Assembly: GCA_964605735.1 (NCBI GenBank)
Contig: CAZSDS010000001.1
Coordinates: forward strand, 703,157-767,156
Length of the DNA stretch: 64,000 nt
Reading direction: 5' to 3'
Origin: an uncultured Candidatus Saccharibacteria bacterium
Lineage (GTDB): Bacteria > Patescibacteriota > Doudnabacteria > UBA920 > O2-02-FULL-48-8
Part shown: one piece after another, positions 2,150 to 36,120 of the stretch
Numbering within the stretch: the first letter of the stretch is position 1
Layout: every line of letters begins with the position of its first letter
Notes under the pieces: model-generated
Databases searched by the model: none
The model's input: only the letters and a program-made list of their open reading frames with translations
Told to the model about the DNA's origin: nothing
Position numbers and translations under genes: made by a program

Positions 2150-2730
2150 ACCTGCATAAACCGCCGGCTTTAGCCGGCGTGTGCGTTTGAAGGCGTAGCC
2201 CTCTGTCACATAAACTAAAGTCACCACACCTTGGTAAGAAGGGAGGTGACTTTAATGTCTAATCGTCGGTTGTATCAACTCGACCATTGCACCTGGAGAT
2301 GTATCTACCACTTGGTTTGGACACCAAGATACCGGGGCCAGGTTCTTCAAGACAAGTATATCAAAGCAGAAGTAAAGCGAATATTCAAGCAGATATGCCA
2401 ATGGAAAGGCTTTGGAATTGAAGGTTGGCACATTGGTGATGAACACATCTATCTCATAGTAATCATTCCACCAAAGTATTCAGTTGCATACGCAACCCAG
2501 GTTCTCAAAGGTAAATCAAGCTCTTGGCTTAAGAAAAAGACAAAACAATTCCCACCAGGACCATTCTGGGCAAGGGGATACTTTGTCACAACCATGGGAC
2601 TAGATGAGCTTACGGTGAAAAACTATGTTGCCAACCAAAAGCACCACCAAAGACCCTTGCCACAACTGCCTTTTCCAGGCTAAGCCTGGATGATAAAAGC
2701 CACCAGCGTCAGCTGGTGGCTAGTTTACTT
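2150..2730 (+). mobile_element. IS200/IS605-family element carrying tnpA only
   Basis: A Y1 (HUH) transposase ORF is flanked by subterminal hairpins, CCGCCGGCTTTAGCCGGCG (2161-2179) and GCCACCAGCGTCAGCTGGTGGC (2699-2720). No tnpB is present. Confidence 0.55.
2255..2683 (+). CDS. tnpA: IS200-type Y1 transposase TnpA
   Basis: The HCTWRCIYHLVWTPRYR motif (HuH plus catalytic Tyr) is the hallmark of IS200 TnpA. A strong SD (GGGAGGTGA) lies 5 nt before the ATG at 2255. Length is about 142 aa. Confidence 0.8.
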   Translation: MSNRRLYQLDHCTWRCIYHLVWTPRYRGQVLQDKYIKAEVKRIFKQICQWKGFGIEGWHIGDEHIYLIVIIPPKYSVAYATQVLKGKSSSWLKKKTKQFPPGPFWARGYFVTTMGLDELTVKNYVANQKHHQRPLPQLPFPG

Positions 2731-2756: not shown

Positions 2757-3476
2757 TTATTTAACGCTGTTTTCTAGAGCTGTAAGTTCGTTGTATACCT
2801 GGAGGTTGTTGTAAACCCAGTGGTCTCCTGGTGGTTGCTTGTATAAACCATTCATCTGTTCAAAGTTCATTTGCGAATATTTCACCTGTGATTTTTTTGG
2901 AGCAGTGTTCAGGAAATGGTTCATGGCAACCACCCCTTCACCGAGGTTGTCGCCCATGTCCCAGAGGTCTGAGCCCCCTACTCCCCAGCAGTTGTTCAGG
3001 TGTTCGATGTAACGGCGGCACATAGTGCTTTCTGCATTTGAGAGCGCAAGAATTTTCTTCCAATTATTCTGTTGCAGGATTACATGAGTGTAGTCAGCCA
3101 GCGGTGAGCGTTTGGATTGCAGGTATTGTTTTAGAGCTGTGTTCATTTTCAGCTGGCGCTGAAGTTTGGCAACGGCCTGTTCGTGTCTTTCCTTGAATGA
3201 TTTTTCTTCTGCGCTCTCTTTCAGTTCGCGCATGAACTCGGTATGGTCCCCTGCTTCAAATACAAGCGGGTTGATGATGACAGGCTCAATTTCTGCAGCA
3301 ACTGATTTTTGCGGGAACAGCATAGGAGTAAGACTGAACAACAAAGCCGCAACCAATAATTTGGTGAATGACCCCATGTCCTCTATAGGCTGGGGAACAA
3401 TGTCTATGTGTTTTTTAACTGTTGGGGCTAAGACTTTTTTCGGGTTCTGTTTTTTGACGATTCTTATTGCGTCCAT
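2757..3476 (-). CDS. hypothetical membrane-anchored or secreted protein
   Basis: 239-aa ORF with an N-terminal hydrophobic segment (LLVAALLFSLTPMLF). No recognisable domain. Confidence 0.5.
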   Translation of the reverse strand: MDAIRIVKKQNPKKVLAPTVKKHIDIVPQPIEDMGSFTKLLVAALLFSLTPMLFPQKSVAAEIEPVIINPLVFEAGDHTEFMRELKESAEEKSFKERHEQAVAKLQRQLKMNTALKQYLQSKRSPLADYTHVILQQNNWKKILALSNAESTMCRRYIEHLNNCWGVGGSDLWDMGDNLGEGVVAMNHFLNTAPKKSQVKYSQMNFEQMNGLYKQPPGDHWVYNNLQVYNELTALENSVK

Positions 3477-3628
3477 TTAGGGTTTGTTTCAAAAATTAGC
3501 GTGTTTCTTCTGAGAGAACCTTATCAAAAATTAACTTCAGGGTCAATGTTAAGATGTGGATTTGCTTGGGATAAAAAAAACAAACGCGCTAGCTGCCTTT
3601 CGTAAAGCATCTAAGGCGTATGTTTCTT

Positions 3629-3715
3629 TGGTGGGCAAGGAGGGAATCGAACCCTCAATCCCTTGCGGGCCCGGGATTTTAAGTCCCGTGCGTATGCCAG
3701 TTCCGCCACTTGCCC
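3629..3715 (-). tRNA. tRNA-Leu (anticodon UAA), type II with long variable arm
   Basis: Hand-folded from the reverse complement: GGGCAAG acceptor stem, anticodon loop CTTAAAA, variable arm CCC-GCAA-GGG, T-arm GAGGGTTCGATTCCCTC, encoded CCA. Confidence 0.8.
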
Positions 3716-3726
3716 CTTATTTCCTT

Positions 3727-3800
3727 TGGAGGTCTGGAGCGGAGTCGAACCGCTGTAAAAGCTTTTGCAGAGCTCTGCCTGACCGCTCGGCCACCAGACC
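3727..3800 (-). tRNA. tRNA-Cys (anticodon GCA)
   Basis: Hand-folded: acceptor GGTCTGG/CCAGACC, anticodon loop CTGCAAA, T-arm AGCGGTTCGACTCCGCT, encoded CCA. Confidence 0.7.
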
Positions 3801-3811
3801 AACTTCGGTAA

Positions 3812-4486
3812 TTATAACAATTTTCCCGACATTTTTCGAGTCTTCAAGAAAAGCTGGAAAACATCGTACTTTCGTTTTAAATACAAACCTGGTGAATTAA
3901 AATACATGTACTTATACAGTTTCAAGCTGTCTTTCGTAGAATAAGCTAGTTGATATGATCTACGGCTTTCGTATAGATGGGGTTTCATAATTCTAAGCTC
4001 TGTTTGGAGTATGTAGTCTAATTGTTCGAGAAATGGTTTACTCCCGCTTGTAAAAACTGTTCTCAATCTTCTTGGGTGACTATTCTTATATTCAATTAGC
4101 ACGGAGCCATCTCCATCGAAATAGCCACGAATAAAATGTTTTAGCTTTTGCTTAGATAGGGCTGGAAAAATCATGGAAAGCGATTTGTTAGGTCTTAGGC
4201 CAATTTTGAATAACTCATTGTAAAGCACATGATTTCCGATTCGTAAAAAATATCTTGCTTGTCGTGTCATGGTTGCAGGTAGAGTAACTATTCTATGCTC
4301 AGATTTAAGCGAGTTTTTTACAATTAAGATTAACTCTTTATCGATACTACTCGCTCTAATATATTTCCCTCTTAAATATGTAGCGTCCTCAAGGCTGCCA
4401 TCTGCATATAGATAACCTAGAATATAAGCTGATTCATTGGTTATTTTTGAAAAAAATTTTTCATTAACTCTATATTTTATGCCCAT
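3812..4486 (-). CDS. LAGLIDADG-family homing endonuclease (free-standing, two motifs)
   Basis: Two LAGLIDADG motifs (ILGYLYADGS and IRGYFDGDGS). The ORF is AT-rich and ends 11 bp from tRNA-Cys. Confidence 0.75.
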   Translation of the reverse strand: MGIKYRVNEKFFSKITNESAYILGYLYADGSLEDATYLRGKYIRASSIDKELILIVKNSLKSEHRIVTLPATMTRQARYFLRIGNHVLYNELFKIGLRPNKSLSMIFPALSKQKLKHFIRGYFDGDGSVLIEYKNSHPRRLRTVFTSGSKPFLEQLDYILQTELRIMKPHLYESRRSYQLAYSTKDSLKLYKYMYFNSPGLYLKRKYDVFQLFLKTRKMSGKLL

Positions 4487-4548
4487 AAACGGTGGTTATG
4501 ATATATCCTGCAATTCTATATATAAAATGTAAGTTTGTCTATAAACCA

Positions 4549-4574
4549 AAACCCCGGGGTTGTCCGGGGTTTTG
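4549..4574. terminator. bidirectional intrinsic terminator
   Basis: AAAA-CCCCGG-ggttgt-CCGGGG-TTTT, with A/T runs on both sides. Confidence 0.6.
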
Positions 4575-4580
4575 TTCATG

Positions 4581-5366
4581 TTAGTTCACAACAGCTGCTG
4601 CGGCTGCGGTTTCAACCAACGCAGCGGCTTCGATAGCCTTAGCCTCAATGGCCTGGGCGGAAGCAAGCACAGCTGGCAAATGCTTTTTGTAGGCGCCTTT
4701 GGTATATGCATACCAAGGTTGGAAACCTCTTCGTGAGTACATTTCCAGGGCTACATCCAGGTTATACTTACAGTCCTGCAAGTTTTCGAAGGTGTGCCAT
4801 GGGTTCCCGGGTTTCCAGTTGATTTGAGCAAGACCGATGTCTATAGAACCATTGCGGTTCAATCCGCGGTTGTCACGAGTACATTCGTGAGTTCCGTTTT
4901 CGGCTTTCAAAATAGCAATGAACGTATTACATTTATCCCCTAATCTAGGACAGACGTATGCACGAATTTCAGGTTCTTGCATGAAGACTCTGTCGGCGCC
5001 GGTTTTCTTTGGCGGAACTGAGTTAGAAGATGTTGAGCTTGTTAAAGTTACAGCTTTCGCTACTGGAAGAACTTGTGCGATTTCAGTGACTGGGAGCGGA
5101 GCCGGATTAGGCACCATCTCCAGTTTAGTAGCAACTTCGACCATTTCTACTTTTTCAGAATTCTTATAGATGTCAGCAATGAGCTGAATTTTAGGAAGTT
5201 CTGGTAATTTTATTGTTGGAAGATTTTTGATTTCAAAGACTTGGGACGTTTTGTTTTCGGTATGAGCATCAGCGGAATTCGGAAAACCGAATAAAGCCAT
5301 GATGGCAAGCATAGAAGCTAAAATTGTGCCATCGATGATGCTCAGCCTCTCAAAACGGGCTGTCAT
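4581..5366 (-). CDS. secreted protein with C-terminal lysozyme-like / transglycosylase-like domain
   Basis: An N-terminal TM/signal segment, and a C-terminal IDIGLAQINWKPGNPW...GFQPWY segment that resembles SLT / transglycosylase-like folds. Confidence 0.45.
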   Translation of the reverse strand: MTARFERLSIIDGTILASMLAIMALFGFPNSADAHTENKTSQVFEIKNLPTIKLPELPKIQLIADIYKNSEKVEMVEVATKLEMVPNPAPLPVTEIAQVLPVAKAVTLTSSTSSNSVPPKKTGADRVFMQEPEIRAYVCPRLGDKCNTFIAILKAENGTHECTRDNRGLNRNGSIDIGLAQINWKPGNPWHTFENLQDCKYNLDVALEMYSRRGFQPWYAYTKGAYKKHLPAVLASAQAIEAKAIEAAALVETAAAAAVVN

Positions 5367-5737
5367 CTTGAAATACTCGCTGGCTTCCTTAAATCACCCT
5401 TCCTATTCCCTTACATAGCAGAGAGCGGCAAATAGGCTGCAATAAAAGGTAGCTTAGTTTGACCTTTATAAAAAGAACTTTCTGCTGCGTTTTTCGGGCA
5501 CTAAATCCTTGGTGATTTAGTTGCCTGCCCTGGCCTCCCGGAGGAGGCTAGGGTACGCAACTGTGAATGTTATCATAAAAAGGGTGTTTTGTCAAGAGCT
5601 AAAAGGTGGTGAATGACCAATAAATACGTGGGTTTTAGAAAGAAATAGGCGTGTGAAATTGTGATAAAAAATGCATAAAAAACAGCCATTTTAAAGGCTG
5701 TTCCAGGTTGTGCTATTTAGACCCTGTTTTCCTCAGT

Positions 5738-6403: not shown

Positions 6404-6793
6404 CTACTTTACTTTGAACCAGACCTCATCTTTGCTGTCTGGTTCGCCATTGTAGTTGCTCATTAATTCCTCACCTTTTTTGATGTCTCTGAGGGCGGTG
6501 AAGATCATAGCTTTTCGTTCAACGTCTTCGTCGTATTCTATGTTGGGCGTGTAGGAGTGGTTGTATAACGAGCCGAACCCAAGCACAATGGCCGGCTGGT
6601 ATTGCGTTGCCCAGGGGAAACAATAATCATCCAAGAGAGTTTTTCTTAAAGTCTTCTCCTGGCTTTTGGGAACAGCTATTACAGGGCAAACTTCGATCAC
6701 TTCACCCTTTTTGATGTCAGCTGTGGCGAACACTCCCCTGCCCTTTTTTCCTGTCTTTCTTACAATAATTTTGGTTGGTGGTTTTATGCGCAT
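6404..6793 (-). CDS. SET-domain protein (putative protein-lysine methyltransferase)
   Basis: GRGVFA...KGE N-SET core, the NHSYTPN (NHSC-like) motif, and a post-SET ELxxNY segment. Confidence 0.7.
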   Translation of the reverse strand: MRIKPPTKIIVRKTGKKGRGVFATADIKKGEVIEVCPVIAVPKSQEKTLRKTLLDDYCFPWATQYQPAIVLGFGSLYNHSYTPNIEYDEDVERKAMIFTALRDIKKGEELMSNYNGEPDSKDEVWFKVK

Positions 6794-7252: not shown

Positions 7253-7319
7253 GAACAGTTAAAACCAATTGTAAAAGCCTAAAAATTATACAAAAAATAT
7301 GCTATCCAGTCAATCCGGC

Positions 7320-36045: not shown

Positions 36046-36120
36046 GGGCATGTAGCTCAGCGGTAGAGCGAATGTCTTATACACATTTGGTCCCAGGTTC
36101 GAATCCTGGCATGCCCACCA
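36046..36120 (+). tRNA. tRNA with anticodon UAU (predicted tRNA-Ile, AUA-reading)
   Basis: Hand-folded: acceptor GGGCATG/CATGCCC, D-arm GCTCAGCGGTAGAGC, anticodon stem AATGT/ACATT with loop CTTATAC, T-arm CCAGGTTCGAATCCTGG, A discriminator, CCA. Confidence 0.65.

Follow-up and report, generated by a model that had tools for sequence, protein, structure and literature searches.

A probable homing endonuclease gene in the 5' flank of tRNA-Cys belongs to a Patescibacteria-wide, tRNA-linked LAGLIDADG lineage

An endonuclease gene directly upstream of tRNA-Cys

The DNA analysed here (the window) is a 64,000-nucleotide (nt) stretch from an uncultured Candidatus Saccharibacteria bacterium assigned to Doudnabacteria in GTDB (GenBank assembly GCA_964605735.1, contig CAZSDS010000001.1, positions 703,157 to 767,156), within which an open reading frame (ORF) of 224 amino acids (aa) with two LAGLIDADG motifs lies directly 5' of tRNA-Cys(GCA) (Table 1). 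Comparison with related loci suggests that this ORF is probably an intact, free-standing and mobile homing endonuclease gene (HEG) that homes to the tRNA-Cys 5' flank, and it belongs to a large, Patescibacteria-wide lineage in which each clade occupies the 5' flank of one specific tRNA gene. A first-pass annotation, made from the sequence letters, had recorded the ORF with its coordinates and both motifs, an 11-bp gap to tRNA-Cys with tRNA-Leu(UAA) beyond, and the lack of an intron in the latter. All of these elements are in place, with 11 nt (3801-3811) separating the ORF stop codon from the 5' end of tRNA-Cys and with ARAGORN and Rfam both returning a continuous tRNA-Leu(UAA). Its statement that the ORF is not embedded in a host gene also holds, the ORF being a separate gene between a terminator and a tRNA with no Rfam intron there.

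The ORF opens with ATG and its reading frame is intact, with the motifs LGYLYADGS and IRGYFDGDGS occupying residues 23-31 and 119-128 of the protein. The Pfam search proposed as a check in the first pass gave a significant profile-level match to LAGLIDADG_3 in two stretches (E=5.3e-12, 46.3 bits, cut-off 22.5), and the AlphaFold2 (AF2) model, made with 41 homologues in the alignment (mean pLDDT 92.7), comprised two alpha-beta-beta-alpha-beta-beta-alpha halves and a C-terminal helix, bearing out the predicted single-chain, double-motif enzyme. The top 50 Foldseek matches in the PDB had the LAGLIDADG fold throughout (homing endonucleases or their engineered variants, an intein and a maturase), led by I-Tsp061I (2dch; E=1.7e-10, 17% identity in the structural alignment), with E-DreI, I-OnuI, bI3 maturase, I-AniI and I-SceI among the other leading matches and a Foldseek probability of 1.00 for I-Tsp061I, E-DreI, I-OnuI, I-AniI and I-SceI. 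By sequence alone, I-Tsp061I was the sole PDB match, at a marginal E=0.017. The aspartates ending each motif (D29 and D126) and one lysine per half (K101 and K206) were invariant in 41 aligned members, and the window protein keeps all 32 residues that are invariant in the family alignment across class-level lineages; D29 and D126 are putatively catalytic, by analogy. WhiA-type domains were absent from the protein in the Pfam search, and the only NCBIfam matches, to long archaeal-type models, were weak (E ~5e-4 to 0.02) and fell well short of the curated cut-offs, adding nothing beyond the LAGLIDADG assignment. Every testable feature is present, and the ORF is a member of the single-chain, two-domain LAGLIDADG superfamily. 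It is also as AT-rich as first described, with an overall GC content of 0.339 versus 0.470 in the flanking genes (0.32-0.39 across the ORF versus 0.45-0.48 on either side), and in all 78 genomes compared the endonuclease gene had a higher AT content than the genes beside it.

Table 1. Features of the endonuclease locus, in window coordinates
Feature	Position	Strand	Basis
IS200/IS605-type Y1 transposase gene	2231-2683	+	Pfam Y1_Tnp, E=6.7e-28
tRNA-Leu(UAA), intron-less, conserved partner downstream of tRNA-Cys	3629-3715	-	ARAGORN, Rfam
tRNA-Cys(GCA), uninterrupted	3727-3800	-	ARAGORN, Rfam
Promoter-like TCGAAA-17-TGtTATAAT for tRNA-Cys, within the last ORF codons	3811-3839	-	Consensus scan, 10/12 with TG
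LAGLIDADG homing-endonuclease gene, free-standing, two-domain, 224 aa, Cys-clade	3812-4486	-	ORF list, Pfam, AF2/Foldseek, neighbour-joining tree
Conserved 5' element TTGCAGGATATATCATAACCACCG, 3 nt before the ATG	4490-4513	-	Upstream sequences of Cys-clade start codons
Sigma-70-like promoter TAGACA-17-TAGAAT (inferred), upstream of the endonuclease gene	4513-4541	-	Consensus scan, 10/12
G+C-rich hairpin with T/A runs, terminator of the upstream 261-aa gene	4547-4574		Terminator scan
Upstream 261-aa gene	4581-5366	-	Conserved in Doudnabacteria-labelled genomes

Each clade adjoins one tRNA species

Homologues were numerous, comprising 1297 word-seeded matches and 934 clusters at 50% identity with E<=1e-30. 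An alignment-based scan extended the family to at least 492 GTDB species genomes, almost without exception labelled Patescibacteria or CPR bacteria (candidate phyla radiation), where a single-protein query scan of the GTDB genomes had given no match. Gene context was compared in 80 genome loci, from assemblies ranked by similarity, and six contigs from exact-protein look-ups, with tRNA counts made on 87 loci. Of the 87, 76 had a same-strand tRNA whose start fell within -100 to +60 nt of the ORF end, the usual range being -22 to +13. Seven apparent exceptions have an intron-containing tRNA-Asp(GUC) at the ORF end, which plain ARAGORN missed because of the intron, and three contigs stop at the ORF. 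With these seven included, a tRNA adjoins the ORF in 82/84 informative loci, and the only two true exceptions are L059 and L079, in which tRNA-Cys precedes the ORF. The first-pass annotation was right about the tRNA neighbours but took them as context, whereas they are the defining feature of the element.

In the neighbour-joining tree, the proteins sort by tRNA: one clade goes with Cys(GCA), one with Asp(GUC) and two groups with Leu(UAA). The window protein belongs to the Cys(GCA) clade, where its long branch lies close to Doudnabacteria sequences. Nearly all Cys-clade loci have tRNA-Cys starting -22 to +13 nt from the ORF end, and in the commonest layout (21 loci) the ORF ends ...G-H/R-V-V-K-TAG, 17 nt inside tRNA-Cys, the TAG belonging to the D-loop. 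Such ORFs, overlapping tRNA genes by 17-22 nt, constitute a recurrent annotation trap. Leu(UAA)-group ORFs are wedged between tRNA-Cys and tRNA-Leu, and some Asp-clade ORFs fill the entire spacer between tRNA-Met and tRNA-Asp, as in L083, where the ORF starts 2 nt after tRNA-Met and ends 12 nt before tRNA-Asp, a layout that suggests co-transcription with the tRNAs. The housekeeping neighbourhood infB-rbfA-ORF-tRNA-Cys was conserved in ~27 loci, and tRNA-Leu(UAA) followed tRNA-Cys in most loci with the gene and in 49/104 without it. As a control, 80 viral relatives (28-39% identity) were inspected: 77 had no tRNA within 3 kb and one abuts a tRNA. This control shows that the lock belongs specifically to the chromosomal Patescibacteria clades and does not arise from the method.

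Three Asp-clade proteins (L072, L080 and L084) carry a ~100-aa N-terminal extension, helix-turn-helix-like (ISNKLNIPKGTITRWFRQLN), fused to the LAGLIDADG core, which probably accounts for the 300-330-aa members of the representative search.

Empty sites, alternative occupants and decayed copies

The gene is optional between conserved neighbours. L186, a 13.9-kb metagenome contig that shares the gene order of the window at 65-77% nucleotide identity, contains the homologue of the 261-aa gene, the terminator hairpin, 123 nt, tRNA-Cys and tRNA-Leu(UAA), with no ORF; L208, from a Doudnabacteria metagenome-assembled genome (GCA_019662105.1), has the same neighbours and tRNA-Cys/Leu pair, again with no ORF. 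Two further relatives of the window's lineage do carry the gene. In the window, the hairpin forms the left limit of the optional segment, and an equivalent hairpin follows the homologous gene in both empty-site relatives. The segment, ~0.7 kb between this hairpin and tRNA-Cys, consists of the conserved 5' element with the promoter-like sequence and then the 224-aa ORF with a non-conserved tail, the ORF being its sole gene. The TAA stop codon falls inside the -10 box of the promoter-like sequence assigned to tRNA-Cys, and ATTGTTATAAT is conserved directly 5' of tRNA-Cys in the L186 empty site too, indicating that the insert lies upstream of the tRNA promoter and that the ORF reads through it. 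Whether or not the gene was present, the 70 nt preceding tRNA-Cys showed a ~2-fold enrichment of promoter-like pairs relative to shuffled sequence. The endonuclease tail 'RPQRID' was considered as a captured rbfA 3' end, an idea rejected since the motif fails to track the rbfA sequence of its own locus; the motif probably represents a -35 box shared in frame.

The dimensions of this segment bear on whether the ORF could have travelled as cargo within a larger integrative or transposable element attaching at the tRNA. Transfer RNA genes are classic integration sites, and an IS200-type Y1 transposase gene lies 1.1 kb away. Two tRNAs and a conserved 239-aa gene, however, lie between this gene and the ORF, and the two vary independently; the transposase gene is absent at the syntenic position in L186, and is thus a separate recent insertion. 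The optional segment holds the ORF only, no integrase was present in any locus, and the segment is on the 5' side of the tRNA, whereas integrases usually target the tRNA 3' end. We regard a larger element as highly improbable.

A metagenome survey by tRNA-Cys DNA pattern, independent of the ORF, placed the ORF directly 5' of tRNA-Cys in 16/108 informative loci and found it absent from 92/108. At the empty loci, the same-strand upstream neighbour was rbfA (38), infB (8), a uracil-DNA glycosylase gene (7) or a GIY-YIG ORF (7). Because rbfA is complete on both kinds of allele, the insert sits in the short spacer between rbfA and tRNA-Cys. The small GIY-YIG ORFs (~84-129 aa; L094, L103, L136, L139, L188, L191 and L206) also lie directly 5' of tRNA-Cys, with the domain in L139 supported by Pfam at E=1.5e-16, and several stop at the same in-tRNA TAG as the LAGLIDADG ORFs. 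The same tRNA-Cys slot is therefore occupied by a second nuclease family.

Comparison with the translation initiation factor IF-2 showed that the presence state differs from that of the nearest neighbour in 14/70 loci. Decayed copies were also recovered: L051 and L166 are split or frameshifted, L102 is truncated, L198 has an internal deletion that leaves 17 N-terminal and ~40 C-terminal codons, and L205 is a tail-only remnant of ~27 codons. In addition, L186 carries a LAGLIDADG paralogue with an in-frame TAA at 2875-3618 (+), before tRNA-Leu(GAG) at 3607, which reads through a TTGAAA-17-TATAAT promoter into that tRNA. The equivalent slot of the window is a 67-nt spacer only (7253-7319). With the paralogue in L186 only and the Cys-slot ORF in the window only, the two tRNA slots show reciprocal occupancy.

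Group I introns lie beside, not around, the endonuclease genes

The first-pass annotation had also raised the possibility that the ORF is the survivor of a lost tRNA intron, and had suggested looking for group I intron elements in its flanks and for relatives inside introns or rRNA. Group I introns are indeed common in the tRNA genes of these bacteria, and a sister clade adjoins intron-bearing tRNA-Asp. Seven Asp-clade loci have, directly after the ORF, a tRNA-Asp interrupted by a conserved, ORF-less intron of 196-240 nt that separates anticodon positions 35 and 36; in L071, this intron scored 49.8 bits (gathering score 50, E=7e-12) against Rfam Intron_gpI. Even here, the endonuclease ORF lies outside the intron, as it does for all tRNA introns of the relatives (196-250 nt, one 620 nt), and no intron or rRNA touched the ORF in the 12 relatives scanned, none of whose loci held an rRNA.

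In the window, Rfam over 3300-5000 found nothing besides the two tRNAs, and no intron signal, even at E<=10; Intron_gpI had no match in the entire window at the gathering score, and the window also held no Rfam rRNA. The ORF lies entirely 5' of an intact tRNA-Cys with no intron remnant, the ORF-then-tRNA layout is general among the informative loci, and no intron was present in any tRNA-Cys or tRNA-Leu(UAA) examined. Descent from a lost group I intron in either tRNA is thus unsupported here, and we consider it very improbable.

The intron-bearing Asp-clade loci have the layout expected of collaborative homing, which is absent at the window tRNA-Cys and present in seven Asp-clade relatives. An endonuclease gene next to an ORF-less tRNA-Asp intron suggests that anticodon-loop DNA may be the Asp-clade target.

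Interrupted tRNA genes were otherwise frequent among the related contigs, affecting tRNA-Phe(GAA), tRNA-Leu(CAA) (one with a 620-nt intron), tRNA-Thr(GGT) and tRNA-Met (L013 4117-4811; L014 1547-1869; L019 3509-3815; L073 3697-4001 and 8921-9196; L082 8153-8474; L184 5163-5471), with Rfam scores of 62-87 bits identifying several of the interruptions as group I introns.

A conserved element precedes the Cys-clade genes

Cys-clade genes share an element upstream of the start codon. A TTGCAG-like word occurred at -26 to -37 in 27/36 loci and before the start codon in 33/67 left flanks versus 3.9 in shuffles, and the strict pattern TTGCAG-N8-11-T(A/T)NCCNC was found in 22/69 left flanks with the gene versus 2/105 loci without it. 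A -10-like box lies directly before TTGCAG in related loci. Read as its reverse complement, AAGTGGTAA-N9-CTGCAA, the element shows the D-loop and anticodon-loop blocks of tRNA-Cys, equally spaced; ungapped alignment placed the best register at these blocks in 12/33 loci (~2.6 expected), the loci being non-independent, and the L028 element matches tRNA-Cys at 19/24 positions. Mean identity of the element to tRNA-Cys was barely above shuffles, again over non-independent loci. Some Asp-clade 5' regions contain the uninterrupted anticodon-loop word of tRNA-Asp, CCTGTCAC, and the L208 empty site has one copy of GCGGTAA-N9-CTGCAA, the Cys element inverted, at 3339-3360 (+), 46 nt before tRNA-Cys, as a possible footprint, target or pseudo-tRNA fragment.

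The element may be an extended -10 type promoter related to tRNA-Cys promoters, or a target-mimicking operator; the phage enzyme I-TevI represses itself through such an operator site. Pairing of the element with tRNA-Cys as RNA was rejected as the principal explanation, there being no covariation with the host D-loop type and the Asp clade having the anticodon-loop word in direct orientation. We tentatively propose, as a possibility that we rate well short of an even chance, that the tRNA gene itself, from D-loop to anticodon-loop DNA, is what the enzymes recognise, that the endonuclease gene, the tRNA allele and the Asp-clade intron move as a unit, and that TTGCAG-N9-TTACCAC is a self-repressing operator mimicking the target. 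If this were true, Patescibacteria tRNA loci would represent a living series of intermediates in the origin of mobile tRNA introns, from empty site to free-standing endonuclease gene to endonuclease gene with protective intron.

Vertical inheritance, sideways movement and tRNA-Cys divergence

Strain-level and lineage-level comparisons gave hints of movement. Between L040 and L042/L017, a ~1-kb tract with the HEG and tRNA-Cys, running from ~120 nt before the start codon to beyond tRNA-Cys, is 79-80% identical between flanks of ~65%; the endonucleases of L040 and L042 are 83% identical and their IF-2 proteins 53%. Between the window and the strain contig L001 (Logan SRR26389779), there are 8 mismatches in 3633-4507 (0.9%), spanning the HEG and tRNAs, versus 54 in 4608-5629 (5.3%), in the upstream gene, with a sharp step at the hairpin; many of these differences are in the Ala-rich 3' end of the upstream gene. 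Among the window, L186 and L208, tRNA-Leu(UAA) is 96.6-97.7% identical, whereas tRNA-Cys, 9-12 nt away, is 66-80% identical. When seven tRNAs of the window were compared with their counterparts in L186, divergence was greatest for the two that differ in occupancy, Cys and Leu(GAG), with the divergence of tRNA-Ala(CGC) nearly equal to that of Leu(GAG). These tract and tRNA outliers are hints of gene conversion or target escape, short of proof. A wider test of tRNA-Cys versus tRNA-Leu divergence was not used, given that gene-lacking loci were chosen by tRNA-Cys pattern and are hence biased.

The strain comparison also informs a less mobile view of the locus, in which the window copy is a resident relic, immobile for want of sensitive targets or through an inactive enzyme, and awaiting decay. 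The window protein has a C-terminal tail shorter than that of most members and is at most 56% identical to any relative beyond the strain variant, consistent with its long branch, and the 3 nonsynonymous and 4 synonymous changes between the two strains are too few to show constraint. Against this, the ORF is intact with every family-invariant residue, its fold is predicted at high confidence, the HEG tract is less diverged between strains than the left flank, and the gene is present in some genomes of the lineage but missing from others, so that sensitive sites probably still exist. A relic is therefore an unlikely but not negligible account of the window copy.

Several observations weigh against homing. 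Endonuclease identity follows that of the neighbouring IF-2 (Mantel r=0.55, reached by 0/2000 permutations) and the GC content at third codon positions (GC3) of the endonuclease tracks the host (r=0.76, slope 0.52); inheritance is largely vertical, and both signals would also fit a long-resident host gene. Nearly all genome-assembly copies were intact, in a sample ranked by similarity. No close donor of the window copy was found, the next relative being 56% identical after a 99% strain variant, and the low divergence of the HEG tract from L001 could partly reflect the hypervariable Ala-rich 3' end of the neighbouring gene. The tRNA-Cys genes of L173 (with the gene) and L205 (without it) are identical, which would leave the self-immunity of Cys-clade hosts unexplained if the tRNA body were the target. 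Finally, we infer cleavage, the target site and all of homing from comparison of loci.

The same strong vertical signal also argues for a domesticated LAGLIDADG protein, inherited vertically and non-selfishly, with a host function tied to tRNA-Cys as an operon regulator or RNA-processing helper. The conserved infB-rbfA-ORF-tRNA-Cys neighbourhood, the residues kept invariant across class-level lineages, the tight physical coupling to the tRNA promoter and the conserved 5' DNA element, which could be an operator, would all suit such a role. A host function is harder to reconcile with the absence of the gene from 92/108 tRNA-Cys loci and from syntenic L186 and L208, with decayed copies, with paralogous clades at other tRNAs and an unrelated GIY-YIG nuclease in the same slot, or with its AT-richness in every genome compared. 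The protein also lacks a WhiA-type domain and retains both catalytic Asp residues, which maturase-only LAGLIDADG relatives tend to lose. The first-pass annotation had left the choice between a domesticated and a free-living endonuclease: the second is favoured by the lack of a host gene and the optional presence, and domestication appears unlikely given the patchy distribution, the decayed copies and the retention of both aspartates.

Patescibacteria tRNA-Cys genes fall into two covarying types (55 loci). In type 1, a D-loop with ..AAGTAG.. (A for the expected G18) always accompanies the T-loop GGGTGCAAATCCC (G for the expected U55), whereas type 2 has the canonical ..GTGG.. with GGTTCGA (for example L002, L007 and L040 versus L013, L037 and the window tRNA). 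In the A18/G55 type, the 18-55 tertiary pair seems to have undergone a compensated change. A role of this type as a cleavage-resistant host allele found no support, with about half of the gene-carrying loci canonical and 85% of variant-type loci without the gene. Co-acquisition of tRNA-Cys with the endonuclease gene from a donor is likewise unsupported in this form: no close donor was found, the best tRNA-Cys match is 84%, tRNA-Cys identity is uncorrelated with endonuclease identity, and gene-lacking L208 shares the general tRNA-Cys type of the window. A scan of viral contigs with the tRNA-Cys DNA pattern gave no match.

A proposed mechanism of homing

Under the favoured interpretation of a mobile HEG, the enzyme would make a double-strand break in gene-lacking tRNA-Cys loci, probably in or beside the tRNA gene, and repair from the gene-carrying copy would bring in the HEG with adjacent sequence (intronless homing). 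The conserved tRNA would act as both durable target and homology arm, which would explain the constant right-hand tRNA and the lineage-dependent left neighbour. Candidate target regions are the D-loop to anticodon segment of tRNA-Cys and the promoter-proximal spacer. Once resident, the gene would pass through long vertical inheritance with occasional sideways moves, followed by decay and loss.

Should this mechanism hold, selfish nuclease genes would shape tRNA loci across a bacterial phylum and possibly drive unusually fast tRNA-Cys turnover. The Asp clade would provide a natural collaborative-homing stage at tRNA anticodon loops, bearing on the origin of mobile tRNA introns, and the lineage would offer many compact (~225-aa) single-chain meganuclease scaffolds with related but distinct specificities.

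Comparison with known systems

To our knowledge, nearly all known cases of free-standing HEGs and intronless homing come from phages and organelles. Full-text searches of the literature turned up no account of LAGLIDADG copies flanking tRNA genes; the lineage is apparently undescribed, and what appears to be new is the phylum-wide lock of endonuclease clades to tRNA genes.

The closest functional analogue would be SegB, a free-standing GIY-YIG homing endonuclease in the tRNA gene cluster of phage T4. Its 27-bp recognition site has a conserved core of tRNA-gene sequence (the T-psi-C stem-loop), and SegB drives preferential inheritance of itself and neighbouring tRNA genes, an activity established by experiment (PMC2330249). 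SegB resembles the window gene in being a free-standing nuclease gene among tRNA genes, with the same mechanism as that proposed here, but differs in its GIY-YIG fold, its phage setting and the lack of a lock to the 5' edge of one tRNA species. Its cleavage is experimental, whereas that of the window enzyme is predicted from comparison. Relative to SegB, the GIY-YIG ORFs at the seven metagenomic tRNA-Cys loci are small and single-domain.

A second parallel is the collaborative homing of F-CphI and the psbA intron of cyanophage S-PM2 (Zeng, Bonocora & Shub 2009, via PMC6083498), in which, as summarized in that secondary account, a free-standing gene lies beside its target and an ORF-less group I intron protects the host copy. 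The seven Asp-clade relatives, with an endonuclease ORF followed by an intron-split tRNA-Asp, resemble this arrangement. In contrast, F-CphI, as outlined there, has an Endo VII-type fold and a protein-coding target, and with an intron-less tRNA-Cys in the window the parallel extends to the sister clade only.

The LAGLIDADG genes so far described from CPR bacteria all lie inside 16S/23S rRNA insertions (PMC11270868). Those enzymes share with the window protein its superfamily, single-chain architecture and phylum, and rRNA-intron LAGLIDADG enzymes are its closest structural relatives, the archaeal rRNA-intron enzyme I-Tsp061I being the best PDB match by both structure and sequence. The CPR rRNA-insertion and archaeal rRNA-intron genes, however, lie inside rRNA, whereas the window gene is free-standing beside a tRNA with no rRNA or intron touching it. 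The IMG/VR viral relatives are full-length homologues and probably free-standing phage endonuclease genes, but differ in showing no lock to tRNA.

Other features of the window

Among the neighbouring genes, the upstream 261-aa protein had no Pfam match; by eye, its DIGLAQIN motif may be reminiscent of lytic transglycosylases. A SET-domain protein is encoded further upstream at 6404-6793 (-) (Pfam E=4.4e-18), in a small bacterial genome. The window also contains a tRNA-Ile with anticodon UAU at 36046-36120 (+), as do L063 and L086; this tRNA is uncommon in bacteria, where AUA is usually decoded by a lysidine-modified CAU tRNA.

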